Shown here: positions 9,080 through 25,522 of the stretch, piece after piece
Layout: the number at the start of each line of letters is the position of its first letter
Position numbering within the stretch: position 1 is the stretch's first letter
Assembly (NCBI GenBank): GCA_015486075.1
Contig: WFSG01000032.1
Span: 106,862-170,861, forward strand
Direction: 5' to 3'
Length of the DNA stretch: 64,000 nucleotides
DNA from: Deltaproteobacteria bacterium
GTDB lineage: Bacteria; Desulfobacterota; Desulfomonilia; UBA1062
Notes under the pieces: model-generated
What the model was told of the DNA's origin: nothing
Seen by the model: only the letters and a program-made list of their open reading frames with translations
Database searches by the model: none
Made by a program: the position numbers and the translations under genes

Positions 9080-9773
9080 GGCTCTGGATAGGAGGCTCAG
9101 GCCTGTTGTGATTTTGTGTCATGGTATACCAAGCTCCGCGCCCGATCCTCAAGACAGAGGTTATACGCCGCTTATAGAGTCGCTGGTTGAGGCAGGTTTT
9201 CATTGTACCTTCTTTAATTTCAGGGGATGCGGGGAGTCCTGTGGCAATATTGATATGGATGGCTGGTATGAGGACTTGTGTTCAGTTATGGAAAAGATAT
9301 ACGGTATACCCGGTATTGATCCCTTCTCTGTGCATATACTAGGTTTTAGCGCAGGGGGAGCAATAGCCACAAAGATGGCTGCCTTGGATGAAAGGATAAG
9401 GAGTGTTATGCTAATGGCAACGCCGGCTGACTTCTCCATAATCCTGCCTCCTGATCCAGATTTCTTAAGACAATACTTCTTAGAGATAGGTCTAATTAAG
9501 GATAACTCTTTCCCCCCCGATATAAGGACCTGGTATGATACCTTTTTAGATCTAGACACTCCTAGATGGGTTCCCTTTCTCTCTCCCAGAAAAATATGCG
9601 TGGTGCACGGCGAGGAGGATACCTTAGTACCGGTGGAACATGCCAGGCGCATATTCTCTGCAGCGCTCAACCCCAAGAAGATCATTATATTAAAAGATGC
9701 CCCTCATCAGCTCAGGAAAGACCACAGGGTGGTGCCATTGATAAAGGAATGGTTGATGGAGGTTTCAGACTAG
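9012..9773 (+). CDS. Alpha/beta fold hydrolase
   Basis: ILCHG, FNFRGCGES, GFSAGG nucleophile elbow, VHGEEDTLVP and a C-terminal His. Confidence 0.9.
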   Translation: MRSKELQINSTGIQIKAWLFSPEALDRRLRPVVILCHGIPSSAPDPQDRGYTPLIESLVEAGFHCTFFNFRGCGESCGNIDMDGWYEDLCSVMEKIYGIPGIDPFSVHILGFSAGGAIATKMAALDERIRSVMLMATPADFSIILPPDPDFLRQYFLEIGLIKDNSFPPDIRTWYDTFLDLDTPRWVPFLSPRKICVVHGEEDTLVPVEHARRIFSAALNPKKIIILKDAPHQLRKDHRVVPLIKEWLMEVSD

Positions 9774-9807
9774 GTTGACAAGCAGGCTAGAATACACCCA
9801 CGAGAAT

Positions 9808-10452
9808 ATGTATTACCCGGTTTTCCTCGATCTCAGGGATAAACTCTGTGTCGTGATAGGTGGTGGAAGGGTGGCTCAAAGGAAGGTGGAATCACTGGTA
9901 AGTGCAGGGGCAAGGGTGAAGGTCATATCAGGTGATATACTTGATGAGATCAGCTCTATTGATGGGGTTATACTTGAGAAGAGGAAATACGAGGATGGTG
10001 ATCTTAAAGGGGCTTTTCTGGTTATAGCTGCTACCGATGATCCCGATGAAAACCTTAAGATAACTAGGGAAGCCAAGGCCAGAGGTATTCTTTTGAATGT
10101 TGTTGACAAGATAGAGCTATGCAACTTTATTATGCCTTCTGTAGTAGAAAAGGGGCCACTAAAGATCGCGATATCGACAGGTGGCTTTTCCCCTGCATTG
10201 GCAAGAAGACTACGCGTGAAGATTGGTAAATATATAGGAGAAGAGTTTGAAATCCTGGCAAGAATTCTGGCAAGGATAAGGCCCATTGTTGTTGGAATGG
10301 GTGGTGATGCTAACATGCACAAGCGTATATTCGAAGTACTTATAGATTCTTCCCTTCTAGATGCAATCCGTGAGGGTAATAGGGAGCAGGTAAATGATAT
10401 TATTTATCAGGCGCTGGGCATACAGATAGACATCGGGGACTTATTATTATGA
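9808..10452 (+). CDS. sirC: Precorrin-2 dehydrogenase / sirohydrochlorin ferrochelatase (CysG N-terminal, SirC/Met8-like)
   Basis: YYPVFLDL, VIGGGRVAQRK, NVVD..CNFIMP and AISTGGFSPALAR. Start placed at ATG 9808. Confidence 0.9.
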   Translation: MYYPVFLDLRDKLCVVIGGGRVAQRKVESLVSAGARVKVISGDILDEISSIDGVILEKRKYEDGDLKGAFLVIAATDDPDENLKITREAKARGILLNVVDKIELCNFIMPSVVEKGPLKIAISTGGFSPALARRLRVKIGKYIGEEFEILARILARIRPIVVGMGGDANMHKRIFEVLIDSSLLDAIREGNREQVNDIIYQALGIQIDIGDLLL

Positions 10453-11270
10453 GTATAATAACTATAACTAGTTTTCTATACATAGCCGCCTTAGCGGCGT
10501 TTGTAATTATGCTCCTAAGTAGAAAATCCCTGATTTTGCTCTTTGCTAGGGCCTTATTCCTGGCATCGGTAGCGTCTCACGGCATACTGATGTTGATACT
10601 TTCCATTAATCTGCACGAGGTACCTTTAAGTTCCGTTCCCCAGGCAATTAACATGATGATATTTATCTCTTCTTTGGCATTTATACCCATTGTATTGAGT
10701 AGAAAGACATACCTGTTGGGTGTTTTCTTCCTGCCGTTTGCATCTTTTGCACTACTATGGGTCTTGCCAGACATAGGCCTTTCAGCGCCTGCCACTTTCC
10801 GTTTCCACACTTATTGGTATCCGCTACATACCCTGAGCGTTATAACAGGGGAGGCTATGTTTGTGGTGGCAGCCGTAACATCTATAGTATACCTTGTTCA
10901 CGAACATATAATAAGAAAAGGGGATTTTCACTCATCGGTATCTTCATCCTTGCCTGCACTCACCCTGCTTGATAGGATCCTCTACATAAGCGTTTTAGTG
11001 GGGTTTCTGGCAATAACTTCTGGTATGATCATGGGTACACTCTGGGCACAGAGCAAGGGGCTGCACTTATCCAAGATAATGCCCAAGATAATAGCAGGGG
11101 GCATTGTATGGATCATATTTGCCGTATGTCTGCACCAGAGATTTGCCATTGGCTGGAAAGGAAGACGTACGGCAATAGTCACGCTCATAGGATTTAGCTT
11201 GATGATTGTATTACTCTTCTTAATTAACATGTTATTTCCACACGCGCATGGACTAGGTCTGTTGCTATGA
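10449..11270 (+). CDS. ccsA: Cytochrome c assembly / HemX-like membrane protein (CcsA family)
   Basis: About 8 TM segments, WYPLH, LPALTLLD, GMIMGTLWA and GWKGRR; typical position upstream of hemA. Confidence 0.8.
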   Translation: MSIITITSFLYIAALAAFVIMLLSRKSLILLFARALFLASVASHGILMLILSINLHEVPLSSVPQAINMMIFISSLAFIPIVLSRKTYLLGVFFLPFASFALLWVLPDIGLSAPATFRFHTYWYPLHTLSVITGEAMFVVAAVTSIVYLVHEHIIRKGDFHSSVSSSLPALTLLDRILYISVLVGFLAITSGMIMGTLWAQSKGLHLSKIMPKIIAGGIVWIIFAVCLHQRFAIGWKGRRTAIVTLIGFSLMIVLLFLINMLFPHAHGLGLLL

Positions 11271-12574
11271 TAAGGATAGAGTGCATCAGCATAAATTACA
11301 GGCATGTGCCTGTAGACATACTGGAAAGGGTAAGGATACCTCCAGAGGCGGTTGTACCCATGTTACCCCCGGGTTCAGAGGCATATACCTTGAACACGTG
11401 CAACCGTGCCGAGATATACTGGACAGGCATGGAAAAGCAGGGTGTCTTTAACATGGTTTCCGGACTTATAGGAGTAGCACCAGGCTACCTTGACCGTATA
11501 TCAGTGCATTTGAGAGGAGAAGACAGTGTTAGGCATCTTTTCAGGGTAGCGTCTGGCCTAGATTCTATGGTTCTTGGCGAACCCCAGATACTGGGCCAAG
11601 TGAAAGATGCTTACAAGGCTGCCCTAGATGAGCACATGGTTTCTATTATATTTAATAAGCTTCTTCACAGGGCCTTCAGGACAGCAAAGCGTATCAGAAC
11701 AGAGACAGCCATAGGCAAGTTTCCTGTTTCCGTTGCATCTGAGGCAGTGGAATTGGCATGCCACGTGTTTGATGAGATCCAGGGAAGTCAGGTTCTTGTA
11801 ATAGGCGCGGGAGAAATGGCCACGATAGCTGCAAAGAGGCTTAAGGACAGAGGGGTATCAAGGATATCTATCCTCAACCGTACCTTTGGACGCGCAAAGG
11901 AGTTGGCAGTAGAGCTGGGCGGTATGGCGCTGAGTTTCAGTGAGCTGCACGAGGCGGTGAGGACGAGTGACATTATAATCACCTCCACGGGTTCTCAGGA
12001 GCCTATAATAACAAAGGACATGATGAGCGAGATAATGAAAGAGAGACATTATAGCCCTGTAGTAATGATAGATATTGCCCTACCTAGGGATGTGGAACCC
12101 GATGTGAGTAAAGTGTACAACTGTTATCTTTATGACCTTGATTCACTGAAAAAGGTTGTTTCAGTAAACTTTACACAAAGGGAAAATGAGATTGAAAAGG
12201 CCGAAGAGATTATAGAATATGAAGTAGGAGTTTTCAGTAGGTGGTTAAAGGGGCTTAATGCTCATGGTACCATAAGGGATCTGTATAACCTGATGGAATA
12301 CTACATATCAGAGCAATTGGAGGAAAAGGCTGCTTTGGTAGGAGAAAAGGAGAAGGCTATTCTAGAAGATGCTCTCAGGTCAATGGCTAAAAGGCTTTTT
12401 AACAGGCCTGTCTCCTTTATGAAGAGATATCCCAAGCTAGACTATATAGAACATACAAGGAGGATATTCCGTCTGGATGAAGACTATCAGGATAGGCACA
12501 AGAGGCAGCAAGCTGGCACTAGCGCAGGTAGAGATAGTAATAAGCTTGATGAGAAATATAGAGGAAAATCTTGA
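11267..12574 (+). CDS. hemA: Glutamyl-tRNA reductase
   Basis: TCNRAE, HLFRVASGLDSMVLGEPQILGQVK, VIGAGEM and DIALPRD. Confidence 0.95.
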   Translation: MIRIECISINYRHVPVDILERVRIPPEAVVPMLPPGSEAYTLNTCNRAEIYWTGMEKQGVFNMVSGLIGVAPGYLDRISVHLRGEDSVRHLFRVASGLDSMVLGEPQILGQVKDAYKAALDEHMVSIIFNKLLHRAFRTAKRIRTETAIGKFPVSVASEAVELACHVFDEIQGSQVLVIGAGEMATIAAKRLKDRGVSRISILNRTFGRAKELAVELGGMALSFSELHEAVRTSDIIITSTGSQEPIITKDMMSEIMKERHYSPVVMIDIALPRDVEPDVSKVYNCYLYDLDSLKKVVSVNFTQRENEIEKAEEIIEYEVGVFSRWLKGLNAHGTIRDLYNLMEYYISEQLEEKAALVGEKEKAILEDALRSMAKRLFNRPVSFMKRYPKLDYIEHTRRIFRLDEDYQDRHKRQQAGTSAGRDSNKLDEKYRGKS

Positions 12575-13361
12575 TGTCGAGGTACGCAAGATACATACTA
12601 CCGGAGACAGGCTTGTCAATGTATCCCTTGACGAAATAGGTGGTAAGGGCCTTTTTGTAAAGGATATTGAGGAGCAATTGCTTGAAGGTGATATAGATAT
12701 TGCAGTGCACAGCCTGAAGGATATGCCAGCAGACCTTCATGAGGGTCTTTATCTAAGTGCGTTTGTTAAGAGGGACGATCCCAGGGATATGCTTTTTACA
12801 AATGGCAGTTACACACTTTATTCTTTACCCAAGGATTCTGATTTAGGCACATCTAGCTTGAGGAGAAAGTACCAGGTAAAGTCGGTAAGGCCTGACGTGA
12901 ATATCGTTAATATCAGGGGTAATGTAACTACCAGGTTAGACAAGATCGGTAAGAGTGTAGATGGTGTGATACTGGCTGCTGCAGGCATAAAACGCCTAGG
13001 ATTAAGGGCCGGTGTACCACTGGACATCAGGACCATAATTCCGGCTCCTGGACAGGGTGTAATAGCCTTGGAGACAAGGAAAGATGACAAAGATATAATA
13101 AATTTTACAAAGAACCTTGACCACGGTGCAACGAGGTTATGTGTTGAGACAGAAAGGGCATTTCTCAAGACCCTGGGTGCTGACTGCAACTTTCCAGTTG
13201 CCGCACATGCCCTTCTTGAACATGCTGATATCATTCTGCACGGCATGCTTGGGGACATGAACAGACCATACCTGATGGTACGGAAAACAGTAAGGGGTAA
13301 AGATACGTCTATAGGTAGTATTCTTGCTGAGGAACTTGTTGAAGAACTGGAGAGAAATTGA
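12477..13361 (+). CDS. hemC: Hydroxymethylbilane synthase
   Basis: IGTRGSKLALAQ, GGKGLFVK, AVHSLKD, GTSSLRR, IRGNVTTR and LGADC. Confidence 0.95.
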   Translation: MKTIRIGTRGSKLALAQVEIVISLMRNIEENLDVEVRKIHTTGDRLVNVSLDEIGGKGLFVKDIEEQLLEGDIDIAVHSLKDMPADLHEGLYLSAFVKRDDPRDMLFTNGSYTLYSLPKDSDLGTSSLRRKYQVKSVRPDVNIVNIRGNVTTRLDKIGKSVDGVILAAAGIKRLGLRAGVPLDIRTIIPAPGQGVIALETRKDDKDIINFTKNLDHGATRLCVETERAFLKTLGADCNFPVAAHALLEHADIILHGMLGDMNRPYLMVRKTVRGKDTSIGSILAEELVEELERN

Positions 13362-14848
13362 ACAGGACAAAGGTATACCTCGTTGGCACAGGACCTGGGG
13401 ACCCTGAACTCCTTACCCTGAAGGCAGAAAGGGTTATCAGGACTGCGGACGTTCTTGTGTACGACGACCTAATACCTCCCGAGGTTATGGGCCTTGTTGG
13501 AAAGCACGCTCTGACCATATATGTGGGCAAGAGGGCTGGCAAGCACAAGATGGGACAGGAGGAAATAAACGGTCTTATGGTAAAACTGGCCCTGGAAGGA
13601 AAGACCGTGGCAAGGCTTAAGGGCGGGGACCCTTGCATATTTGGAAGGTGCGGGGAAGAAGCAACTTATCTGAAGGAACATGGTGTAGATTTCGAGATCA
13701 TTCCAGGTATAAGTTCAGCAACAGCAGGACCAGTCTCGGCAGGTATACCACCTACCCACAGGCAACTGTCTTCGTCTCTCAGGATAGTTACTGCACACGA
13801 AGATCCCACGAAGAAAGATAGCCTCTTGGACTGGGAGAATTTGGCCCGGGATAAGGGCACAATTATATTTCTCATGGGTGCATCCCGCATAGGTGCCATT
13901 GCAAAGAGGCTCATTAAAGAGGGCATGGACGGGGATAGACCATGTGCTCTTATACAGGATGCAACCACGGGTTCCCAGAGGCATGTTTTATCTACCCTGG
14001 AAAAAGTAGCTGAGGATGCAGCTTTGGCAGGTATTGCTTCCCCATGTATAATGCTGGTCGGTAACGTGGCAGTTCTTGCACGAGATCTCTTCAGACCAGC
14101 CAAGCTTCCCCTTGAGGGAAGGTCTGTGCTTATAACTAGGCCCGTTCATCTCGCCTGGGAGTCTGCCCTTCTATTCTCTTCCCGCGGTGCCAAAGCATAC
14201 GTATACCCGCTCATAGAGATCTCTAAGCTCGATTTTGATATACCTAGGATAGACTCCTATGACATGTTTATTTTTACATCCCAAAACGCTGTTACTATTT
14301 TCATGGAAAGACTTTTCAGTGCTGGCCTGGATGCTAGGGTATTTGGAGGCAGGGAGATTGTGGCCATAGGACCAGGCACCACGGGCGCCCTGAATAAATA
14401 CGGCATTAGGGTTGATACTATAGCTGGGACATATACTGCAGAAGGGATAGTGGATGCCATTGGCATGAAAGACCTTAAGGGTCGATTTATATGCATTCCA
14501 AGGGCAAAGGGCGCAAGGCCTTATTTGGTTAAGGCCTTGGAGGGTATGGGTGCATATGTGAGAGAGATCTTGGTATACGAAAGCAGGATGCCGGCTAATG
14601 CATGTAAGGAAAGTTTCTACCGCGTGCTCTCTAAAGTGGAATCGGTTATATTCACTAGCCCTTCGGGTGCAAGTAATGCTTTTAAGCTTCTTGGAAAGGA
14701 TACAATACACATTCTTGCCTCGAAGACAGTTATTGCTATTGGACCTGTAACAGCCAATTTTCTTAAGGCCTCGGGCCTTGAGCCGGACTTGTCAGCAACT
14801 ATACATACAGATATGGGTATTATTGAAGCCATGAAAGGAGCAGCATAG
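13358..14848 (+). CDS. cobA: Uroporphyrinogen-III C-methyltransferase / synthase fusion (CobA-HemD)
   Basis: VYLVGTGPGDPELLT and RLKGGDP, followed by a HemD domain (FTSQNAV, AIGPGT, FTSPSG). Confidence 0.92.
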   Translation: MNRTKVYLVGTGPGDPELLTLKAERVIRTADVLVYDDLIPPEVMGLVGKHALTIYVGKRAGKHKMGQEEINGLMVKLALEGKTVARLKGGDPCIFGRCGEEATYLKEHGVDFEIIPGISSATAGPVSAGIPPTHRQLSSSLRIVTAHEDPTKKDSLLDWENLARDKGTIIFLMGASRIGAIAKRLIKEGMDGDRPCALIQDATTGSQRHVLSTLEKVAEDAALAGIASPCIMLVGNVAVLARDLFRPAKLPLEGRSVLITRPVHLAWESALLFSSRGAKAYVYPLIEISKLDFDIPRIDSYDMFIFTSQNAVTIFMERLFSAGLDARVFGGREIVAIGPGTTGALNKYGIRVDTIAGTYTAEGIVDAIGMKDLKGRFICIPRAKGARPYLVKALEGMGAYVREILVYESRMPANACKESFYRVLSKVESVIFTSPSGASNAFKLLGKDTIHILASKTVIAIGPVTANFLKASGLEPDLSATIHTDMGIIEAMKGAA

Positions 14849-16026
14849 TGATAGGCATATCAAAACTTTATTGCGGAACAGTGGAGGCATCAGACCCCAT
14901 AAGGTATGGGAGGCGTTCGAGGGCCCTCCCCGCGCACCTTTTACAGTTCTCCGAGGATAAGAAGCCTGTTATAGTCTGGAATATAACTAGCAGGTGTAAC
15001 CTCAAGTGTATTCATTGTTATGCCTCTGCAGGTGGAGGTCAGACTAAGGAACTAACCACGGAACAGGGGCTTGGTCTTATTTCGCAGCTAAAGGATTATG
15101 GCGTACCTGTTATACTTTTCTCTGGGGGAGAGCCCTTTATGAGACAGGACTTGGTACAGCTTGTGAGGTCAGCTGCAAATAGTGGTATAAGGGCAGTTAT
15201 ATCAAGTAATGGGACCCTGATAACAAGGGATATGGCAAACAGACTTGCCGACGTTGGCCTATCTTACATAGGTGTGAGCCTGGACGGGATGGAGGGAGTT
15301 AATGACAAGTTTAGGGGAGTGCAAGGTGCATTCAAGAAGGCGATGAAGGGTATGCAGAATGCCATGGCAAGCGGCATAAAGGTAGGCTTAAGGTTCACGA
15401 TGAACAAGAGGAATTATACTGAAATCCCGGCTATATTTGACCTCATGGAAGCAGAGGGTATACAGAGAATTTGCTTTTATCACTTGGTTTATACGGGACG
15501 GGCGCGAGATTTAATGGCAGAGGACCTTACGCATGAAGAAACGAGGAAGACCCTTGATCTTATAATGGAGAGGACAAGAGAGATGATAGAGAAAAAAGGC
15601 ATTGATGTTGAGGTCTTGACCGTTGATAATCATGCCGATGGTCCCTACCTATATCTTCGCATGTTAGAGGAGGGTAATAAAAGAGCACCTGATGTGTTGG
15701 ACTTGTTAAAGATGAATGGCGGTAATTCAAGCGGCCTGGGTATAGGATGCATAAACTGGGATGGAGATGTGTATCCTGATCAGTTTTGGCGTAACCACAA
15801 GTTGGGGAATATTCTGGAGAAAGAGTTCAGCGAAATATGGGAAGACAGGTCTAATGAGTTTCTAATGAAGCTCAAGAACAAGAAGCTTCATATTAAGGGT
15901 AAATGCCAGAGATGCAAATGGCTTGATGTATGTGCTGGTAATTTCCGTGCAAGGGCAGAGGCGGCGACAGGTGATCCATGGGGGGAAGATCCCGCCTGTT
16001 ACCTGACGGAAGAGGAGATTAGTTAA
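14848..16026 (+). CDS. ahbC: 12,18-didecarboxysiroheme deacetylase, radical SAM (alternative heme pathway)
   Basis: MIGISKLYCG, LLQFSEDKKPVIVWN, CNLKCIHC, VLTVDNHADG and SPASM cysteines. Confidence 0.92.
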   Translation: MIGISKLYCGTVEASDPIRYGRRSRALPAHLLQFSEDKKPVIVWNITSRCNLKCIHCYASAGGGQTKELTTEQGLGLISQLKDYGVPVILFSGGEPFMRQDLVQLVRSAANSGIRAVISSNGTLITRDMANRLADVGLSYIGVSLDGMEGVNDKFRGVQGAFKKAMKGMQNAMASGIKVGLRFTMNKRNYTEIPAIFDLMEAEGIQRICFYHLVYTGRARDLMAEDLTHEETRKTLDLIMERTREMIEKKGIDVEVLTVDNHADGPYLYLRMLEEGNKRAPDVLDLLKMNGGNSSGLGIGCINWDGDVYPDQFWRNHKLGNILEKEFSEIWEDRSNEFLMKLKNKKLHIKGKCQRCKWLDVCAGNFRARAEAATGDPWGEDPACYLTEEEIS

Positions 16027-16090: not shown

Positions 16091-16133
16091 AGTAGCCACC
16101 CCTTGTTTTTATGCAAGGGGTGGCTACTTTTTT
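16091..16133 (+). terminator. Rho-independent terminator after ahbC
   Basis: AGTAGCCACCCCTTG-N8-CAAGGGGTGGCTACT is a perfect 15-bp stem followed by a T-run. It abuts the stop codon of the convergent Cache gene. Confidence 0.85.
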
Positions 16134-16134
16134 A

Positions 16135-17451
16135 TCATGGATCTACAATCTTGTCTTCGTCGTAATGTTTGGCGGCTTCCTCGGCCTCGGGTGGTACTTC
16201 TGCATCAATTGAACGCGTTATGCCCCTTGCAAGTAGCGTGGATATTAAGAAGAGCAATATTACTGCTACGACAAGGATTATAATGATCGTGCTAATCCAT
16301 GTCTGAGCTTCTTTCTCTATCTTCTTTGATGTCTTCATTGCTTGTTCCTGGAACTTTTCTATATCCACGCCAAGTCCAACCCATCCAAAGCCACCGGGAG
16401 GAGGATAATCTTTTGAGAAGAAAGGTATTGGGGCGTATGCAACAAACTTTGTGTGACCCTCAAACTTGTATAGCTTGATGCCAGAGTGTCCTGCCGATGC
16501 ATCTTGATCAACCCCGTATAGGGCTGGATTGGTATGCCTCAGAAGCCTGAGGTTGAGTACTTGTTCGCCTTTTTTAGCCATCTCGTTACGGTTTTCCTTT
16601 GTGACAGGTGGGACTCTTTTACCGTTCTTGAGTAGTCCCTCTATGAAGTAGTCATTGGGATGTGATATGATAAAACCCCTGTTATCGACCATATATGCGT
16701 AATTTCCCGTCGACGCGTTAGCCTCAAGGACGCGTTCAGGCTGTGTGGGTATTATGTTATCCGTGAACTTGGCAAGATGCCTGGCGTCTAAGGCTAGTTC
16801 AATTACCCCTGCAAAACCATTTTTGTTGAAAATTGGCGTTGCAAACCTTATTACGCCCAAAAAACGTTTTCCCTTTTTGAAATCGAACTTGTTTACGTAC
16901 CAGCCAGTGACATGAGATATATAGACCTCTCCCTTGGAGAGGTTCTTGGCCTTGAGGAAATAATCTTCTGATTTGTAGGTGGTATTCAAGGGGTTACTTA
17001 CGTTTACCAGTTTCTCTTTAGGCACTATCTTGCCATTTACTATTTTTATCAGCTCGTTTCCCTTTTTATCTATCAGACTCATCTCCTTGTACAACGGTGC
17101 CTGTATCTTGAGGACCTTTGAATCTTTCTTCACCCAGAGAGCTTTTCTGTTCTCGTTTACAAATTTTTTGTAAGCATCTGGATCTGGTGGTAAAATCGTT
17201 GCAATCAATACATCCCTTTGCCTTTCCTTAAGGAAGTCAGCTATATCCCCAGCTATGGACTTTGCCCTCAGGAGGATTTCCTCCTGGGACTTTTTGTCCA
17301 GTACAGTAATGGCTTGTTTCTTGGATGAGCTACCCAGTTGAAATATACTGAAGGCAATAAGGGAAGATATCAACAGCAAGGGGATGACAACGAGCAGGAA
17401 GAACAGTCTCGCTACAGTGAAAAATCGTCTAGCTTTTTTGCTTTCAGCCAT
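16135..17451 (-). CDS. Stand-alone dCache-domain membrane protein (2 TM, no cytoplasmic output domain)
   Basis: TM1, a large extracytoplasmic domain (YKEMSLIDKKGNE, IRFATPIF, YAYMVDNRGFIISHP, KFVAYAPI), TM2 and a tail of about 30 aa. Confidence 0.8.
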   Translation of the reverse strand: MAESKKARRFFTVARLFFLLVVIPLLLISSLIAFSIFQLGSSSKKQAITVLDKKSQEEILLRAKSIAGDIADFLKERQRDVLIATILPPDPDAYKKFVNENRKALWVKKDSKVLKIQAPLYKEMSLIDKKGNELIKIVNGKIVPKEKLVNVSNPLNTTYKSEDYFLKAKNLSKGEVYISHVTGWYVNKFDFKKGKRFLGVIRFATPIFNKNGFAGVIELALDARHLAKFTDNIIPTQPERVLEANASTGNYAYMVDNRGFIISHPNDYFIEGLLKNGKRVPPVTKENRNEMAKKGEQVLNLRLLRHTNPALYGVDQDASAGHSGIKLYKFEGHTKFVAYAPIPFFSKDYPPPGGFGWVGLGVDIEKFQEQAMKTSKKIEKEAQTWISTIIIILVVAVILLFLISTLLARGITRSIDAEVPPEAEEAAKHYDEDKIVDP

Positions 17452-17506
17452 TCCCTACCCCCCTGACTTTTTATTGTTTTCTTGAAAACATCTAAGACCA
17501 ACTTGA

Positions 17507-17881
17507 TTAACCAAATAGAAATGTTTTGTAGGGGTTGACGTAGAGAAGTATAAGCGCAATGACAAGTGCGTAGATGGCAATTGACTCTGCCATTGCCATA
17601 CCTACCATCATAGTCATCATGATCTTCCCCTGTACACCAGGGTTTCTTCCAACCGCTTCTGATGCACCAGCCGCTGCATTACCGATACCTGCACCTGCGC
17701 CTATTGCTCCAAGCCCCATAGCAAGACCTGCTCCCACCATGGCACCTACCGAGAAGATAACCTTTATCAATGGGTCATTCTCTGTTATGGTTTCCGCTGC
17801 GAATAGGCTTGGTGAAATGCCTAGCACGAATGCAAAGACAGTGGTCAGAAACATCAATACTTTTTCGGTTTTCCGAAGCAT
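17507..17881 (-). CDS. atpE: ATP synthase F0 subunit c with N-terminal leader
   Basis: GLGAIGAGAGIG, GRNP loop and AMAESIAIYALVIALILLYVNP. ATG 17881 follows AGGAGAGAGG. Confidence 0.93.
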   Translation of the reverse strand: MLRKTEKVLMFLTTVFAFVLGISPSLFAAETITENDPLIKVIFSVGAMVGAGLAMGLGAIGAGAGIGNAAAGASEAVGRNPGVQGKIMMTMMVGMAMAESIAIYALVIALILLYVNPYKTFLFG

Positions 17882-17976
17882 AACCTCTCTCCTTTCCTTA
17901 TTTTTTATACGCACCTTTTGGATGCGCCTTTTTTCATAAATTTGCAAGAACATACACCAATTGCTGCCAGTCTTAC

Positions 17977-17992
17977 AGCAATAAATATGCCA
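17977..17992 (-). promoter_or_regulatory. Sigma54 -24/-12 promoter for atpE and the Cache gene
   Basis: Minus strand TGGCAT-ATTTA-TTGCT. Confidence 0.8.
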
Positions 17993-18019
17993 TGGCCTTG
18001 TCCACTTGGGTAGTAAGCA

Positions 18020-18032
18020 TAATACACTGATT
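18020..18032 (-). promoter_or_regulatory. IHF binding site
   Basis: Minus strand AATCAG-TGTA-TTA matches WATCAR-N4-TTR, between the promoter and the palindrome. Confidence 0.6.
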
Positions 18033-18085
18033 TCTGGACATATTTTAGATTATACTCCAAAGGACACGCTTGGTTCAATGCAACG

Positions 18086-18109
18086 TATCGTTAAATAATT
18101 TTAACGATA
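18086..18109. promoter_or_regulatory. Inverted repeat, putative enhancer (UAS) for a sigma54 activator
   Basis: TATCGTTAAA-TAAT-TTTAACGATA has perfect 10-bp arms and lies about 100 bp upstream of the -24 element. Confidence 0.6.
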
Positions 18110-18342
18110 TTTAATGAAAATTGAAACCACTGAAAGATGACCCTTGGACGTGTGGTTATATATTGAGGGTTTTTACCCTTTGCTTTTAACTAGTTGTCAG
18201 TTCTAGGCCCATTGATATTTGCGTTTATTTTATTGAAAGTATATTGAGAATATAGGGATGTGCTTGTAGTATCATGGATATTAAGCTAAACTTTTATCGG
18301 ATATGATAGATAGCTGCCTTGGCGGCCAGAGAAGGGTCTATT

Positions 18343-18513
18343 ATGAGAGAGATACTATCCGTGGCAACCTATCTTCTCGTATGGTTTGCTTGCCAGAGAG
18401 TGCTATGCATACAGAGCGGATTGACTAAGCTCATTATCTCACTTAGTGCTGCTATACTGGTATACGTAATCGTGGTTTTGATGGACCGTGTACAGAACAA
18501 CAAGGAAGAGTAA
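18343..18513 (+). CDS. Small hypothetical 2-TM membrane protein (56 aa)
   Basis: Two hydrophobic stretches and a charged tail; ATG 18343 follows GAAGGG. Confidence 0.5.
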   Translation: MREILSVATYLLVWFACQRVLCIQSGLTKLIISLSAAILVYVIVVLMDRVQNNKEE

Positions 18514-18585
18514 GTAATATAGAGTGTTCCTATATCTCAGAGAAGTGTATATCACGGTGCAAGATTTATATTAAAGCAGTTAAGT

Positions 18586-21198
18586 ATGAAAAAGCATTTT
18601 TTCATGACTAATGTAAGGTTATCAATCTGGCTTGCAACAGTGGCTGTTATAGCCCTGATAGTTCTTTTAGCCATGACCATAAACTACGCTAGAGAGAAGG
18701 CCGTGGTAAGGCAGTTTGGCTTGCAACAACAAACCATTGCGTTCGAGATAACCAAGGGTATCGAAAACCTCATAACCAGTGTAAAAAGGAACATGCTTAT
18801 TATATCCGAGCTTCCTCCTAGGCTAGGTAATAGCAATAAAGAGAAATGTAAAATTATTGAATCCGTTTATAGGCATCTCGGGACAAACGTAGGTATTATT
18901 GGTTTCTTGGATTATAAGGGTAGGTTTATATGTGGGTCCCCTCCATTAAGAGGAAAAGAGTTCAAGGGGATTAATTTTTGGGATACCGTGTTATACAAGG
19001 AGAAGAGTGCTACGAGGAAGCCTGTCATTGAGCATGTTTATTCGCACTTGTTGGTAGGTCCTGAAGACAGATCAGGGTCAATACTAATTACAGTACCTGA
19101 CTTTGATACATCTGGAGGATTGCTAGGGACTATCTTTGCCTACATGCCACTTAGCATGATTGTTGATCAGTACGTAAAGACAGCTATTGTTAATCCCAGG
19201 AGTAGTTTCTTGATAGCAGATGAAAATGCTAATGTAGCCGCAAGCTCAGTTACGTGGTGGATAGGAAGGAATGCTAGGTCTATTTTCTTCGGTACTGAGC
19301 ATGGAAAACACCTAGAGGGCAAGGCACTGTTTAAAAAGGAGGGTTACAGCGAGTTTGTATTGAATGATTCCAAGGTGGTGACAAAGAAGGTTGTGGTTGC
19401 CTATTCCCCCCTTTATATTGGAGATAAGGCATGGACTCTGGCAATAGTCACTCCGTACTACGTAGTAGTATCCATGATAAGGGGAACATTTCTTTACATT
19501 GTTGTTGGTACATTAAGCTTAGTCATATTGGTTACTATTACTGGTATGTCTATTGCCTCCTCAGCTGCAAAGAGGCTACGTATGGAAGAAGAACTCAAGA
19601 GACTCAAAGAAAGGGATACTTGGCAGAGGAGGATACTCAGGGAAAAGAGGACAGTAGAGGGTATCATAGAGGGATCTCCTGTACCAACATTCGTTGTGAA
19701 CAAGGATCACAAGGTGGTCTTTTGGAATAAGGCATGTGCTGAACTTACCGGTTATGCCAGAGAGAAAATGATTGGTACAGACGAACAATGGCGACCCTTC
19801 TACGGGGAGAAACGCCCGGTTATAGCGGATATTATAATTGATAACGAGCCAGATGTACTTGCCAAGTACTATGCTGTCAAGGGAATCAAAAAGTCAGCCA
19901 CTGTAAAGGGTGCATATGAAGCAAGGGATTTCTTCAAAAATCTTGGTGGTAAGGATAGACACTTGTACTTTCTTGCGGCCCCTATATACGACGAGAATGG
20001 CAAGATCATGTATGCCATAGAGACATTGATGGATGTTACCAGGGAAGTCGAGATGGCGCGTAGTCTAAAGGAAAATGCAGAGATATTACAAAACGAGTTG
20101 AATGAAAACATAAGGCTCAGAAAGGAAAAAGAAAACCTGTATAATTATCTCCAGACAATAGTGGAGAGTCTACCTGACAAGATATTTGAGATCAGTCCAG
20201 AAGGAATAATCAGCTATGTAAACAAGGAAACCATAGGAGAGGGAAGAACCGAATCTAGTAAGATGAAGGGTAAACATTTCACCGAGTTTGTAGACCCTGA
20301 ACACAAGGAGTTTGTATTAAAGAAATGGGAGGATGCCAAGAAAGGTATCTTTATGCCCTATGAGCTCAAGGTAACGGCAAGAGACGGAAGCAAGAGGGAT
20401 TTATTGATAACCCCTAGGCCTGTAAAGGGTACGAACCGTTACCTGTTAGTGCAGAGAGATATTACAGAGTTAAAGAAGCTTGAAAACAAGTACTACGAAA
20501 GCAAGCATCTAGCAGCTCTTGGGCAGCTTTCGGCAGGCATTGCCCACGAGGTAAGGAACCCACTCTCCTCCATCAAGATGAGCCTGAGGATACTGCAGAA
20601 GAGACTTAATCCGGTGGGAAACGATCTAAAAAGGTTCGAGATAGCCCAGAGAGAGGTAGAACACCTTGAAAGGCTGGTCAACGATGTGCTTATTTTTGCA
20701 AGGCCATCGGAGCCCAAGAAGAAGCCGTCTGACATAGTCAATATCCTGGAGCAGGCGCTCTCAATGGTAGAACAGCCTATAGTGGATAAGGGTATAAAGG
20801 TTGAAAAGGTACTTGACAAGGCCATAGGTGCTGTGAACGTGGATCCAGTGATGTTGGAGCGTGCGTTTATAAACATATACCAGAATTCAATAGATGCAAT
20901 GGATCAGGGAGGTGTGCTTACCATAACAGCCAGCAGATTAACCGATGATGGGGACTATGTGGTAATCGAGGTCAAGGATAATGGTTGCGGAATAGATAAT
21001 AAGGACATGCCGTATTTATTTAATCCATTTTTCACAAGAAAGAGATACGGAACAGGCCTGGGGCTTTCCCAGGTTCAGAGGATTGTGGAACAACACGGTG
21101 GTAAGATAGAAGTATTAAGTAAGAAGGGAAGGGGTACGAGGTTTATAGTAACGCTGCCCTTAGGTACTACTAACAAGGGAAAAGCTACTGCCACTTAA
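18586..21198 (+). CDS. Sensor histidine kinase (TM-Cache-TM-PAS-PAS-HisKA-HATPase)
   Basis: AHEVRNPL H-box, NIYQNSIDA, DNGCGI, FNPFFT and GTGLGL; PAS motif FWNKACAELTGY. Confidence 0.95.
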   Translation: MKKHFFMTNVRLSIWLATVAVIALIVLLAMTINYAREKAVVRQFGLQQQTIAFEITKGIENLITSVKRNMLIISELPPRLGNSNKEKCKIIESVYRHLGTNVGIIGFLDYKGRFICGSPPLRGKEFKGINFWDTVLYKEKSATRKPVIEHVYSHLLVGPEDRSGSILITVPDFDTSGGLLGTIFAYMPLSMIVDQYVKTAIVNPRSSFLIADENANVAASSVTWWIGRNARSIFFGTEHGKHLEGKALFKKEGYSEFVLNDSKVVTKKVVVAYSPLYIGDKAWTLAIVTPYYVVVSMIRGTFLYIVVGTLSLVILVTITGMSIASSAAKRLRMEEELKRLKERDTWQRRILREKRTVEGIIEGSPVPTFVVNKDHKVVFWNKACAELTGYAREKMIGTDEQWRPFYGEKRPVIADIIIDNEPDVLAKYYAVKGIKKSATVKGAYEARDFFKNLGGKDRHLYFLAAPIYDENGKIMYAIETLMDVTREVEMARSLKENAEILQNELNENIRLRKEKENLYNYLQTIVESLPDKIFEISPEGIISYVNKETIGEGRTESSKMKGKHFTEFVDPEHKEFVLKKWEDAKKGIFMPYELKVTARDGSKRDLLITPRPVKGTNRYLLVQRDITELKKLENKYYESKHLAALGQLSAGIAHEVRNPLSSIKMSLRILQKRLNPVGNDLKRFEIAQREVEHLERLVNDVLIFARPSEPKKKPSDIVNILEQALSMVEQPIVDKGIKVEKVLDKAIGAVNVDPVMLERAFINIYQNSIDAMDQGGVLTITASRLTDDGDYVVIEVKDNGCGIDNKDMPYLFNPFFTRKRYGTGLGLSQVQRIVEQHGGKIEVLSKKGRGTRFIVTLPLGTTNKGKATAT

Positions 21199-21244
21199 GA
21201 GAAAGACAAAGTATTCGGTTTCTCGCGTAAAGAGGATATATTTC

Positions 21245-22621
21245 ATGTCAAGGATCCTTGTTATTGATGATGACCGGTCCATATGTGAGACATTAGAGCT
21301 TTACCTGGAAGAGGAGGGTTATGATGTCCAGACAGCTTTGACCGGTACTGAGGGCCTGAGAAAATTCGTGGAGATTAGTCCAGACCTCGTGATTTTGGAC
21401 ATAAGGCTTCCTGATGTGGATGGTTTCAGGATACTGGAAGATTTGAAAGAGGAGGACGAGAACGTCAAGGTGATAATGATAACCGCTCACCATGACATGG
21501 CCTCTACGATAAGGGCCATGAAAGAGGGTGCGTTTGATTACATACACAAACCAATCGATATTGATGAACTTGAGATTGCCATTAAAAAAGCGCTGAAGGC
21601 ATTGGATATGGAGAGAAAAATAGATGGCCTGCTAGGGGAGCCATTTCGCGATTTCAAGATGGGCGATATCATAGGTAGCGGCCCAAAGATGAACGAGATA
21701 TTCAAGACAATTGGTGTGGTATCACAGGGCAGGGCCACTGTCCTCATACAGGGAGAAAGCGGTACAGGCAAGGAATTGATCGCAAAGGTCATACATAGTA
21801 ATACTACTAGGGACGAGCCTTTTATAGCTGTCAATTGTTCGGCCATTGTCGAGACATTACTAGAGTCAGAGCTCTTTGGCCATGAAAAGGGCGCATTCAC
21901 AGGTGCAGTGGCAAGGAAACCAGGCAAGTTTGAACTTGCACGTTATGGTACAATCTTTCTCGATGAGATAAGCGAGATGTCGTTAAACCTGCAGGCTAAA
22001 CTTTTAAGAGTTTTGCAGGAAAGAGAATTCGAAAGGGTCGGTGGAAAAGACAGAATAAAGGTCAATGCCAGAGTAATAGCCGCCACGAACAAGGACCTCT
22101 GGGAGCTTGTGAAGCAGGGTAAATTTAGGGACGATCTATACTACCGCCTGAACATAGTAACCATAAACATACCACCCTTAAGAGAAAGGAAGGAGGATAT
22201 TCCTCTGCTTGTTGACTATCTTCTTAAGAAGATAAACCATGACCTACATAAAAACATCGTAGGTGTATCTGACGAGATGATGGAAACCTTCTATAAGTAC
22301 AACTGGCCTGGGAACGTGCGAGAACTGGAGAACCTTCTTGTAAGGGCATCTGTTCTTGCAAGGGGCCATATACTAGGTCGGGAAGACTTTCCAGAACTCA
22401 CTAGTCCCCCAGTGACAGCAGGAAAAGTTGAAACTAAGGATGAAGCCCGCGATGAGTACGGAAGGTTCCTTACACTTGAAGAGGTAGAAGAAAGACACAT
22501 AAGAAGGATAATTAACGAGACCAAGAAGAACAAAGGAGAGATTTGCGAGATATTAGGTATATCACGCCCAACGTTCGAAAGAAAGCTCGAAAAATACGGT
22601 ATAAAGTTTGAAAGAGATTAG
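21245..22621 (+). CDS. Sigma54-dependent response regulator (AtoC/ZraR-like)
   Basis: VIDDD, LDIRLP, GESGTGKE, ESELFGHEKGAFTGA, WPGNVREL and HTH (LGISRPT). Confidence 0.95.
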   Translation: MSRILVIDDDRSICETLELYLEEEGYDVQTALTGTEGLRKFVEISPDLVILDIRLPDVDGFRILEDLKEEDENVKVIMITAHHDMASTIRAMKEGAFDYIHKPIDIDELEIAIKKALKALDMERKIDGLLGEPFRDFKMGDIIGSGPKMNEIFKTIGVVSQGRATVLIQGESGTGKELIAKVIHSNTTRDEPFIAVNCSAIVETLLESELFGHEKGAFTGAVARKPGKFELARYGTIFLDEISEMSLNLQAKLLRVLQEREFERVGGKDRIKVNARVIAATNKDLWELVKQGKFRDDLYYRLNIVTINIPPLRERKEDIPLLVDYLLKKINHDLHKNIVGVSDEMMETFYKYNWPGNVRELENLLVRASVLARGHILGREDFPELTSPPVTAGKVETKDEARDEYGRFLTLEEVEERHIRRIINETKKNKGEICEILGISRPTFERKLEKYGIKFERD

Positions 22622-22817
22622 TTAAGAACATTGACGATGAGCGCCTGAAAGACAGTTTTTTAAGTAGCGTACTTCTGCCTTGATGAGAATGAAGATATAA
22701 TTTAACATTTCATTCAACATTTTATTAAAGACTATTAACATTTCTTTTAAAAATCTTATTTATTTTGATCTAGGCCGGGTTATCCTATCTAGGATCCTTT
22801 GCCAATAATACCTTTCA

Positions 22818-22874
22818 AAACAATTAGTTATAAATATTATCCTTGCTTTGTGCAAATGTGGCACGGTTATTTCA
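22818..22874 (+). promoter_or_regulatory. Putative sigma54 promoter (22859-22874) with IHF-like site (22818-22830)
   Basis: TGGCAC-GGTTA-TTTCA has a perfect -24 and a variant -12 (TTTC). AAACAA-TTAG-TTA has one mismatch to the IHF consensus. Confidence 0.55.
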
Positions 22875-22914
22875 TTACTATGGGTGAAGGTAAGAGAAAA
22901 AGGAGGTAAAGGTC

Positions 22915-23190
22915 ATGAAAAGAATATTCCAGACATTGTTACTTACCGCTTTTGTGTTACTGACCACAGTATCTTTTGGCTATGCCGAATACATGGCAAC
23001 GAATGCGGCTAATTTCCCCTATTTTCACCTCGGTTGCCTAATAATGGGTGGTCTAATCATAACCTCTTTAAAATACAGATATCCCAAGATGTATCTGAGT
23101 GAGGCAATTGGTTCCTTTGCTCTTTATGCAATACTCGTGGCCATATTCACTGCACCGGTAATTGACGCGATAAAGTCACTGGTCAGCTAA
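22915..23190 (+). CDS. Hypothetical small membrane protein (signal/leader + 2 TM), 91 aa
   Basis: Strong AAGGAGGT SD, leader ending GYA-E, and two hydrophobic helices around KYRYPK. Confidence 0.8.
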   Translation: MKRIFQTLLLTAFVLLTTVSFGYAEYMATNAANFPYFHLGCLIMGGLIITSLKYRYPKMYLSEAIGSFALYAILVAIFTAPVIDAIKSLVS

Positions 23191-23207
23191 TCGTAGTGTG
23201 GTACAGG

Positions 23208-23234
23208 TAGGGGGCGGTCGTGGGCTGCCCCCTA
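23208..23234 (+). other. GC-rich intercistronic stem-loop without U-tract
   Basis: TAGGGGGCGGTC-GTG-GGCTGCCCCCTA forms 12 bp including two G-U pairs. Confidence 0.7.
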
Positions 23235-23268
23235 AAGATCCTTTAAGAGAAATAAGGAGGTGCACATC

Positions 23269-23505
23269 ATGACAGGCACTGGGAATAAGGCGCATGGAAA
23301 GCACAACAATATGCAGATCTTAATGATTAGTGCATGGGGCTTCACCATGGTAATATCTTCTTTCCTGTTTCTGTTCATAGGCCACTGGATTGATAACAAG
23401 TTCAACACAGAACCTAAGTTTATGACTGGCTTACTGGCCTTGGCTGTGTTTCTGTGTATCTGGAGATTATACGAAGAGGCCATAAAGAAGAGCAAGAAGT
23501 GCTAG
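23269..23505 (+). CDS. AtpZ/AtpI family protein (ATPase gene 1 / AtpQ-like)
   Basis: GFTMVISSFLFLFIGHWIDNKFNTEPKF fits the family GxWxDxxxxTxP pattern; ATG 23269 follows AAGGAGGT. Confidence 0.8.
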   Translation: MTGTGNKAHGKHNNMQILMISAWGFTMVISSFLFLFIGHWIDNKFNTEPKFMTGLLALAVFLCIWRLYEEAIKKSKKC

Positions 23506-23857: not shown

Positions 23858-25522
23858 ATGAAGTCAAGGATCGAGAAACTGTTGAAGTTAGCCGTTAATG
23901 AGCTTGCAGGTAGGGACGTACTTTCAGACCCAGGGATGGTAGATATTCTGGTGGAAAAACCTTCTAAGAAGGAATTCGGTGATTTTACAACCAATGTGGC
24001 CATGCTTATAGCTTCTGCAGAAGGTAAGCCACCCAGGGATATCGCGTCCATGATAGTCAATACAATAAGAGATAGTCATGTTGATATATTCTCAAGCGTA
24101 GAGATTGCCGGTCCTGGGTTCATAAATTTCAGGGTTAGTCCTGCATACTGGGTAGGGGTACTTAAAGATATATTGAATAATAAAGACGACTACGGGAAGA
24201 GTGCCTATGGTAAGGGTAAGAGGGTACAGATAGAGTTTGTAAGTGCTAACCCAACAGGGCCGTTACATGTGGGACATGGTAGGGGCGCTGCTGTTGGAGA
24301 TACACTGGCAAACATACTTAAGGCAACAGGTTTTCATGTTGAGACAGAGTATTACATAAATGACGTTGGCAACCAGATGAACACTCTAGGTCGATCTGTT
24401 TTTGCTAGGTATCTTGAGCTTCTTGGGAGGAAGTTAGATTTTCCTGAAGACGGGTACCAGGGGGATTACATAAAGGATATTGCCGAGGAAATAAGGAAAA
24501 GGTATCACGATGACTTGTTGCATTATTCAACAGATGAAGCTGTAGCACTGTGCAGGGACTTTGCTTCTGATGTTATACTAGAAGGAATAAAGGAAGATCT
24601 GGATTTGTTCGGCATAAAATTCGACAGGTGGTTCAGCGAGAAAGTCCTACATGAGGATGGTAAGATACAACAGGCCATTGACACCCTTGCGTCAAGGGAT
24701 CTTGTTTATAACTCAGATGGTGCCCTGTGGTTCAGGTCAAGCAGGTTTGGAGACGAAAAGGACAGGGTTGTAAGAAAGAGGGATGGCACCCTTACCTATT
24801 TTGCATCTGACATCGCATATCACATGGACAAGCTGGCAAGGGGTTATGATACGATTATAGATATATGGGGTGCAGATCATCATGGATATGTTTCAAGGAT
24901 GAGGGCAGCTGTGAAAGCCCTCGGCGGAAGTGAACGGAGCTTCCATGCCCTTTTGATACAGCTCGTATCCCTTGAAAGGGCAGGCAGGCCTGTGTACATG
25001 TCAACGCGGAAGGGTGAGTTCGTTACCTTGAGGGAGATCTTAGATGAGGTGGGAAAGGATGCTGCACGTTATTTTTTCCTAATGCGTAAATGTGATAGCC
25101 ACCTCGTGTTTGATCTGGAACTTGCAAAGAAGAAGACAGAAGAGAACCCGGTGTTCTACATACAGTACGCGCATGCAAGGATATGCTCGATTCTAAGAAA
25201 GGCATCTGAGATGGGCATGGTACCCGATGTAGATGGCGCTGACCTGGATTATGTCTCCAAGGGAGACGACCTTGAGCTTATCAAAGTCCTGGCAGGCTAT
25301 CCCTCGCTTCTTGTCTCGTGTGCACGTAGCATGGAACCCCATCATGTGTCCTTTTACCTGCTGGAGCTTGCAGGTCTTTTTCATAGGTTTTATAATAAGA
25401 ACAAGGTGATATCGGATAACAAGGAACTCAGCCTGGCTCGACTTTGCCTGGTAGATGCAGTGAGACAGGTCCTGGTCAGCGGGTTGTCCATTATGGGCAT
25501 AGATGCCCCAGAGGTTATGTAA
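23858..25522 (+). CDS. argS: Arginyl-tRNA synthetase
   Basis: AGPGFINF, EFVSANPTGPLHVGHGRGA, WGADHHGY, MSTRKG and YIQYAHAR. Confidence 0.97.
   Translation: MKSRIEKLLKLAVNELAGRDVLSDPGMVDILVEKPSKKEFGDFTTNVAMLIASAEGKPPRDIASMIVNTIRDSHVDIFSSVEIAGPGFINFRVSPAYWVGVLKDILNNKDDYGKSAYGKGKRVQIEFVSANPTGPLHVGHGRGAAVGDTLANILKATGFHVETEYYINDVGNQMNTLGRSVFARYLELLGRKLDFPEDGYQGDYIKDIAEEIRKRYHDDLLHYSTDEAVALCRDFASDVILEGIKEDLDLFGIKFDRWFSEKVLHEDGKIQQAIDTLASRDLVYNSDGALWFRSSRFGDEKDRVVRKRDGTLTYFASDIAYHMDKLARGYDTIIDIWGADHHGYVSRMRAAVKALGGSERSFHALLIQLVSLERAGRPVYMSTRKGEFVTLREILDEVGKDAARYFFLMRKCDSHLVFDLELAKKKTEENPVFYIQYAHARICSILRKASEMGMVPDVDGADLDYVSKGDDLELIKVLAGYPSLLVSCARSMEPHHVSFYLLELAGLFHRFYNKNKVISDNKELSLARLCLVDAVRQVLVSGLSIMGIDAPEVM

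Follow-up and report, generated by a model that had tools for sequence, protein, structure and literature searches.

Two-component systems with activators of the NtrC class, such as DctBD-dctA, ZraSR-zraP and AtoSC, are encoded divergently from a sigma-54 target operon. The Na+ F1Fo ATP synthase of Acetobacterium woodii has several c genes that supply one mixed ring, and these genes are part of the atp operon and share its expression, while AtpZ and AtpI (UncI) are small membrane proteins whose genes head atp operons. Here, we describe a block of seven genes in a 64,000-nucleotide (nt) stretch of a Deltaproteobacteria bacterium of the Desulfobacterota (the window; assembly GCA_015486075.1, contig WFSG01000032.1, positions 106,862 to 170,861). 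The block forms a sigma-54 regulon of three units that is conserved in Desulfobacterota of the Syntrophales type, and its constant core is an extra F-type c subunit, cA, paired with a Cache-only membrane protein, dCacheA. As in the DctBD, ZraSR and AtoSC systems, a kinase and a REC-AAA+-HTH_8 activator adjoin a target that has a GG-N10-GC promoter and upstream palindromic sites, but the targets here are a c subunit, a Cache-only protein, a hairpin protein and an AtpZ-like protein. All seven open reading frames (ORFs) that the initial annotation had assigned to the block were confirmed in position (TM, transmembrane helix; aa, amino acids):

16135-17451, minus strand: dCacheA, 438 aa; TM, double-Cache (dCache) periplasmic domain, TM and an acidic tail of ~29 aa
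17507-17881 (likely gene; ORF 17507-17953), minus strand: cA, extra F-type ATP synthase c subunit (PF00137, TIGR01260)
18319-18513, plus strand: tm64, 64 aa, heading the kinase operon; two hydrophobic stretches
18586-21198, plus strand: sensor histidine kinase; TM, dCache, TM, PAS, PAS, HisKA, HATPase
21245-22621, plus strand: NtrC-class response regulator and sigma-54 activator; REC, AAA+ with GAFTGA, HTH_8
22915-23190, plus strand: p91, 91 aa; signal peptide and two-helix hairpin
23260-23505, plus strand: AtpZ-family small membrane protein, 81 aa (PF09527); likely start at the ATG at 23269

The cA-dCacheA pair and its rnf-linked paralogue

cA and dCacheA are an obligate pair. In 30 related genomes, full-length stand-alone Cache homologues split into lineage A, the window type (59-89% identity to the window protein), and lineage B (35-40% identity to A), and a c gene was directly upstream of the stand-alone Cache gene in 24/24 loci; loci with only weaker or fused Cache matches had an upstream c gene in none of six cases. 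A further 80 lineage-A loci were collected from public metagenome-assembled genomes (MAGs) labelled Syntrophales, Syntrophaceae, Syntrophus or Desulfomonilia, where c preceded the Cache gene in all 72 loci that had 450 nt or more of upstream sequence. The phylum was surveyed with 401 evenly sampled genomes, 46 of which matched the Cache profile at E <= 1e-40. Stand-alone forms of ~440 aa occurred in six families of this sample, and those outside the window's family were all of type A, with cA adjoining in 11/12 loci and no room in the twelfth. Since related genomes are not independent, these and all following counts describe conservation and are not statistics. The module-bearing genomes whose names were seen are all uncultured MAGs, some labelled Syntrophus; no public RNA runs holding the locus were found, and likewise no expression data, the one public run that contains it being a DNA run, possibly of the source sample. 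At one locus, L182, in a single-contig 2.9-Mb genome (G412:C1:575000-594900, ~9650-11300), cA and dCacheA each need frame changes and tblastn matches the kinase in two overlapping segments; the frame changes could be real decay of the module or long-read assembly errors.

The assignment of cA to the F-type c subunits is based on matches to ATP-synt_C (PF00137; 67.9 bits, cut-off 24) and TIGR01260 (47.5 bits, cut-off 43.95), together with the hairpin, loop and carboxylate expected of the family: a Gly-rich helix 1, an Arg-Asn-Pro (RNP) loop and a helix-2 Glu (AESIAIY). Translation probably starts at the ATG at 17881, which follows a ribosome-binding site (GGAAAGGAGAG); this gives a protein of 124 aa with a signal-peptide-like N-terminus. 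Residues G56, G58, G61, G63, G67, R79, N80, P81 and E99 are invariant in 15 lineage A and B sequences. Around the helix-2 Glu, cA (MAMAESIAIYALV) closely resembles the housekeeping c (LAMIESLAIYALV). One helix-1 position is Gln in the housekeeping c of the family, Ile in cA and Met in cB, the c subunit of lineage B (also recorded as Ile or Met in cA and cB). The ratio of non-synonymous to synonymous substitution rates (dN/dS) of cA was 0.010 and 0.009 in two pairs (dS 0.8-0.9) and 0.15 in a third, closer pair, while that of dCacheA was 0.07; this check, proposed with the initial annotation, thus revealed strong purifying selection on both genes. A maximum-likelihood tree was built by a quick search from 68 c subunits, and in it lineage A, lineage B and the housekeeping c with signal peptide each formed one clade (Shimodaira-Hasegawa-like approximate likelihood ratio test support of 96, 88 and 95, respectively), the branching order among the three not being settled.

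The partner protein, dCacheA, features a dCache_1 domain (PF02743; 54.3 bits, cut-off 45) between two TM helices, and its AlphaFold2 model (predicted local distance difference test score, 82) gave dCache sensor domains as the top Foldseek matches (3lid, 6iop and 2p7j, E ~1e-10). It lacks the output domain of a kinase or chemoreceptor, as no further Pfam domain was found and the protein ends ~29 residues past TM2. Its nearest relatives over the whole TM-dCache-TM length are complete sensor kinases (31-35% identity, E ~1e-80 against the profile). These longer profile matches are of ~830-1220 aa, and the six that were scanned are dCache-HAMP-(GAF-PAS)-HisKA-HATPase kinases of Desulfobacterota, which dCacheA resembles over TM-dCache-TM but without the HAMP or kinase domains. 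None of 11 loci with such fused kinase forms had a c gene beside it. Given that its closest relatives are complete dCache kinases with no adjoining c gene, dCacheA appears to derive from a kinase of which only the sensor part was detached and retained alongside a c subunit. A close paralogy between dCacheA and the Cache domain of the neighbouring kinase was also considered and was dropped (best BLASTP E = 1.0).

Column homozygosity in lineage A was 0.76 for TM1, 0.63 for the periplasmic domain and 0.60 for TM2, and the corresponding values in lineage B were 0.81, 0.64 and 0.83, with 0.91 for the linker. TM1 is therefore more conserved than the periplasmic domain in both lineages, which is the reverse of what we would expect of an ordinary sensor and fits a specific contact inside the membrane. 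A complex prediction for dCacheA with three mature cA copies scored 0.02 against a mark of 0.32, which we take as evidence neither way.

The lineage B pair of this genome and the rnf genes that follow it lie on contig C21 (19943-26382), where a second orphan c gene (cB) precedes a 434-aa Cache-only protein that is 39% identical to dCacheA. Lineage B is present in 18/18 genomes of the window's family, and its pair is directly followed by rnfA, B, C, D and G and a second rnfA-like gene in 10/17 loci (10/16 of those with downstream room), while six loci with room have the pair away from rnf. In this genome the gap between the pair and rnf is 104 nt, with no terminator-like site. No sigma-54 element precedes the B pair in the 17 loci; instead, its promoter is of the sigma-70 type, with a conserved TTGCAT, a spacer of ~17 nt and TGTGTATAAAAT. 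The leader contains a palindrome, TTCAGA-N7-TCTGAA, which is exact in 13/17 loci and was read as one-base or spacing variants in the other four; no regulon was drawn from this palindrome because it occurs only once in the whole genome. This second, sigma-70-driven c and dCache pair directly upstream of the rnf operon in the window's family is new. Lineage A was beside rnf in none of the 109 loci for which rnf proteins were among the queries.

Two-component unit, promoters and the p91 and AtpZ-like genes

The unit divergent to cA encodes tm64, the kinase and the activator, and has this position in 60/69 loci with room; it lies downstream in one and is absent from eight. It was present in 10/10 loci fetched from three other families. 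tm64 matches no Pfam family and was detected by an iterated hidden Markov model in 79/101 group-A loci. The activator belongs to the NtrC class, with matches to PF00072, PF00158 (231 bits) and PF02954 and a GAFTGA motif read in the translation, and is 72-78% identical across families. The best NCBIfam match of the kinase was AtoS (254 bits, cut-off 646) and that of the activator was AtoC (485 bits, cut-off 714), and these scores are so far under the equivalog cut-offs that neither protein is regarded as an orthologue. The following sites lie upstream of the two target units:

17978-17992, minus strand: sigma-54 -24/-12 promoter of cA-dCacheA, TGGCATATTTATTGC (TGGCAT-N5-TTGC)
18020-18032, minus strand: match to the integration host factor (IHF) consensus, between activator site and promoter; weak evidence
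18073-18117, minus strand: predicted upstream activator site, a palindrome with further TTNAAC half-sites
22700-22750, plus strand: predicted activator site of the p91 promoter, TTTAACATTTCATTCAAC ... TTAACATTTC
22859-22874, plus strand: sigma-54-type promoter of p91 and the AtpZ-like gene, TGGCACGGTTATTTCA (TGGCAC-N5-TTTCA)

The promoter of cA has the GG-N10-GC signature of sigma-54 and an upstream activator site in the expected range of 80-150 nt, and the genome contains rpoN. A -24/-12 element was found 87-121 nt before cA in 9/9 loci of relatives, and the strict pattern was found in 63/72 public cA loci; the nine misses comprise six one-base variants, one element masked by N and two loci with a misplaced start. 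The activator site contains a perfect palindrome, ATCGTTAAA-ATTA-TTTAACGAT, at 18087-18108. The sigma-54 element and palindrome described here by the initial annotation were thereby borne out. Its IHF match is present as well and its position is suitable, but it is statistically without weight, as the consensus is no commoner in the window than expected by chance (8 found, 7.3 expected). The density of TTNAAC half-sites per 120 nt was 3.18 in 65 regions upstream of cA and 1.38 in 16 regions upstream of p91, compared with 0.19 in a background of random pieces of the same loci, and repeats of AAC(A/G)TTTC(A/G)TTCAA are common to both upstream regions. A genome-wide regular expression for an activator site plus a sigma-54 promoter matched the p91 promoter alone, this pattern being so narrow that it missed the cA promoter.

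A sigma-54-like site had also been reported before the 91-aa gene. The -24 element there is perfect, but the promoter is atypical because its -12 element reads TTTCA rather than TTGCA. The element or its variant TGGCACGNTTCTTCCT was found by eye 56-69 nt before p91 in 9/9 loci with p91 after the activator. A regular expression that allowed only G or T as the third base of the -12 element caught six of these nine and missed three TTCCT forms, and a looser one found the element in 9/12 further p91 loci. The proposed control of the block by its two-component system and sigma-54 is thus upheld by promoters and a common activator motif that are kept across dozens of species.

p91 has no Pfam family, as 13 members searched at E up to 1 gave only scattered chance matches. 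The second helix of its hairpin features an invariant Glu (E63), and the best local hhalign match to c subunits aligns the conserved Glu residues of both; this match is not significant (probability 1.7%) and p91 is not counted as a candidate member of that family. The following gene encodes a small protein with two TM helices that matches PF09527 (42 bits, cut-off 26.6), and rather than heading an atp operon it is situated after p91 and before argS. An AtpZ-like gene follows p91 in 11/12 loci, while p91 itself adjoins the activator in only 5/46 public loci and is present in 14/101 group-A loci overall. p91 was found in 10/10 related genomes that have cA-dCacheA and was not found in the eight family genomes without this pair; it also occurs in one 77%-complete genome in which the pair was not found. 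Its position varies: one genome has a cA locus without the two-component unit, and there an activator gene adjoins p91 and the AtpZ-like gene, and in family f58 the order is cA, dCacheA, p91, AtpZ-like. The gene set is thus kept together in several families in shuffled arrangements, as emerged from the synteny survey that had been suggested, and a linkage that is shuffled yet persistent is good evidence from gene order that p91 and the AtpZ-like gene belong to the cA regulon and that the whole is one functional unit. In one relative, six p91-family matches lie on six different contigs.

The borders claimed for the block, a terminator and argS, were both located, as was the hairpin described between its last two genes:

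16091-16128, both strands: bidirectional intrinsic terminator, left border; 16-pair stem with nine GC pairs, then a T-run
23209-23233, plus strand: GC hairpin between p91 and the AtpZ-like gene, without a T-run; read from the sequence
23858-25522: argS, right border

The terminator separates the 3' end of dCacheA from a radical-SAM gene. This gene belongs to a set of hemC-like, fused cobA/hemD-like and radical-SAM/SPASM genes to the left of the block (window positions 12477-16026), a trio that also flanks the module in a sister genome; the hemC-like and cobA/hemD-like labels were read from translations, and the radical-SAM gene alone was scanned against Pfam.

ATP synthase genes of the genome and the proposed role of cA

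Consistent with the initial annotation, the ORF list and family scans revealed no atpB, F, H, A, G, D or C within the block, so cA is not encoded with a, b, delta or F1 genes. The assembly (2.30 Mb, 49 contigs, scored 100% complete) contains c-subunit matches at four loci and two a subunits. There is one F1: PF00006 has four matches, two of them the F1 alpha and beta subunits (contig C41) and two of them FliI and Rho. The C41 cluster is the only complete atp cluster of the genome and is ordered atpZ, atpI, atpB, fused c, 85-aa c, b', b, delta, alpha, gamma, beta, epsilon. At C41:118923-120180 in this cluster, the fused c of 326 aa consists of four hairpins, of which only the first has the ion-binding Glu and the other three have Gln, and the 85-aa single-hairpin c carries E..SEST..Y. 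A second cluster on contig C22 (11139-12884) consists only of atpZ, atpI, atpB and an atpE with a signal peptide, and has no F1 genes of its own. In relatives, open frames of 308-576 aa with 3-7 c-subunit matches adjoin the second atpB, and three relatives have a separate a/c set and a single F-type alpha/beta pair, which lies on the same contig as the fused-c cluster. Because this genome and several relatives have a separate a/c set without its own F1, one F1 may serve two different Fo motors, to judge from gene content. Five PF09527 genes were found: AtpZ-family genes head both atp clusters, and three lie outside them. Two of the latter stand alone without p91 beside them (C22:18160-18396 and C5:197506-197745). 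The initial annotation had asked whether its atpE was the only copy in the genome. Given the other c genes, which lie inside or beside atp clusters, the window gene is not the sole copy, nor does it belong to a broken operon.

With one F1, two a subunits, four kinds of c and AtpZ-family genes heading both clusters, the simplest reading is that cA is a conditional rotor subunit. We tentatively favour this reading, in which cA is an inducible alternative rotor subunit for the single F1Fo and its partners are ring-specific, and put its chances slightly short of even. Upon a signal, the kinase, with its dCache and two PAS domains and co-encoded with tm64, would phosphorylate the NtrC-class activator, which would bind the AT-rich TTNAAC sites and open two sigma-54 promoters. 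The first would yield cA and its TM-dCache-TM partner, which appears to have lost a kinase half, and the second would yield p91, with its hairpin and invariant membrane Glu, and the AtpZ-family protein. A conditional c-ring would then replace or join the housekeeping ring on the single F1Fo, with dCacheA, p91 and the AtpZ-like protein as membrane-bound, ring-specific partners in assembly or regulation. The size and ion-site content of a c-ring set the ion/ATP ratio, so an alternative ring could change this ratio or the coupling ion. Syntrophic degraders of fatty acids and aromatic acids live near the thermodynamic limit, and the ATPase of a syntroph would at times have to run backwards, powering Rnf. 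In a general model, syntrophs have to alternate their ATP synthase between ATP formation and the hydrolysis of ATP that drives reverse electron flow via Rnf (as restated in PMC12994167). We infer that dCacheA binds the c subunit, that cA enters the ATP synthase and that this would serve such a physiological purpose. If true, this would be the first indication that bacteria re-gear their ATP synthase in response to a signal, by way of a rotor subunit that has a kinase and a sigma-54 switch of its own.

Several points weigh against this role for cA. In the genomes examined, the housekeeping c is never replaced by cA or cB: 11/11 related genomes of the family keep a c gene beside the canonical atpB, and in five genomes of other families a third c gene is retained at a distance of 3-8 kb from a canonical-type atpB. 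No a subunit is co-regulated with cA in the block, there is no obvious reason why an alternative rotor subunit should require an obligate Cache partner, and the paralogous B pair adjoins rnf instead of an atp cluster. Pfam domain listings of 46 longer cA homologues contained no fusion of c with a Cache domain; most have only c-subunit domains, as multi-hairpin forms would, with one a-c fusion and one b-c fusion. The replacement of the helix-1 Gln by Ile or Met, which we presume from work on Na+-binding c-rings could mean a different coupling ion, also belongs among these points, as does the fact that the entry of cA into F1Fo is something we infer. The third c genes of the five other genomes (families f58, f68 and f87) are on the opposite strand by their listed strands and do not adjoin atpB; given their distance of 3-8 kb, a c gene apart from atpB is not unusual in the phylum.

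It is rather unlikely, though far from negligible, that c and Cache proteins instead form a stand-alone membrane complex outside the ATP synthase, in which a c-ring capped or plugged by the Cache helices might serve as a sensor of ions or membrane potential or as a conductance under ligand control. The obligate pairing in two paralogous lineages and the conservation of TM1 over the periplasmic domain in both (TM2 exceeds it in B only) would suit such a complex, as would the retention beside c of a sensor module cut from complete dCache kinases and the lack of any co-regulated a, b or F1 gene at the pair. However, the cytoplasmic RNP loop is invariant, and we take this loop to be where c meets the central stalk of F1 in ATP synthases; an AtpZ-family partner points to Fo biogenesis, and we know of no ion path for a c-ring that lacks an a subunit.

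In a further reading, which we consider improbable, the Cache helices would sit in or on a ring of the paired c, and the double-Cache domain would cap its periplasmic face, such that a small molecule from outside clutches, brakes or templates the rotor. If true, there would be one copy of the capped ring that is constitutive beside Rnf and one that is induced by a signal, and the arrangement would correspond in bacteria to the lumenal accessory subunits of V-ATPases, giving the first case of a ligand-binding domain attached to an F-type rotor.

A function with Rnf, for example as an accessory or coupling element of this ion-motive ferredoxin:NAD oxidoreductase with the window copy as its inducible version, is quite unlikely. 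It would explain why the B pair, present throughout the window's family, precedes rnf in 10/17 loci and is separated from it here by only a short gap that contains no terminator-like site. Against this, six B loci with room are not beside rnf, and lineage A, which is wider and apparently older, is never beside rnf among the loci queried; to our knowledge, no Rnf complex with a c subunit has been described.

An equally long shot is that dCacheA serves the neighbouring kinase as a co-sensor, decoy or feedback element, with c as ordinary cargo of the regulon. dCacheA is built like the sensor half of a kinase and, judging by the conserved promoter, is probably under the sigma-54 control of its own two-component system, but its Cache domain has no detectable similarity to that of this kinase. 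In addition, lineage B has the pair without a two-component system and with a sigma-70-type promoter, and the pairing with c holds in every locus with upstream room whereas that with the kinase fails in 9/69. Finally, although the Fo set of the block is limited to a c gene and an AtpZ-like gene, the alternative raised in the initial annotation, a decaying remnant of a second atp operon, is scarcely credible and fails because strong purifying selection acts on the c gene (dN/dS of 0.01) and the Cache gene (0.07), with the same gene set recurring in five families, its dedicated promoters conserved and no relative having a full atp operon at this place.

Comparison with known systems

Neither a pair of a c subunit and a Cache protein nor sigma-54 control of atpE is described in the literature as far as it was available, a search that had the supplements of syntroph proteome papers outside its scope. 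The constant Cache partner and the second copy beside rnf are explained by no described system and may point to a new kind of rotor accessory. More generally, the module suggests that microbes short of energy refit or regulate their ion-driven machinery in response to a signal.

V-ATPases have accessory subunits, Voa1, ATP6AP1/Ac45 and ATP6AP2, that combine a lumenal domain with a helix inside the c-ring. By analogy only, dCacheA shares with these a large domain on the outer face and a constant association with a proteolipid, seen here in the pairing of the genes. It has no relation to them in sequence or fold, and its binding to the ring is hypothetical.

The 81-aa protein of the window is like AtpZ in that it belongs to PF09527, the family that heads both atp clusters of this genome. 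Unlike AtpZ and AtpI in their operons, it follows a novel hairpin protein under a sigma-54-type promoter, with no a subunit nearby and no AtpI (PF03899) partner seen. In one report, the role of a plant factor is called similar to that of bacterial Atp1/UncI, a helper of c-ring assembly (PMC9806626).

The closest parallel for the c genes themselves is A. woodii, with which this genome shares several c genes for few F1 sets and a rotor of variable make-up, here including a fused four-hairpin c next to a single-hairpin c. Unlike in A. woodii, the extra c gene described here lies outside the atp clusters, has its own sigma-54 switch and comes with an obligate Cache partner.

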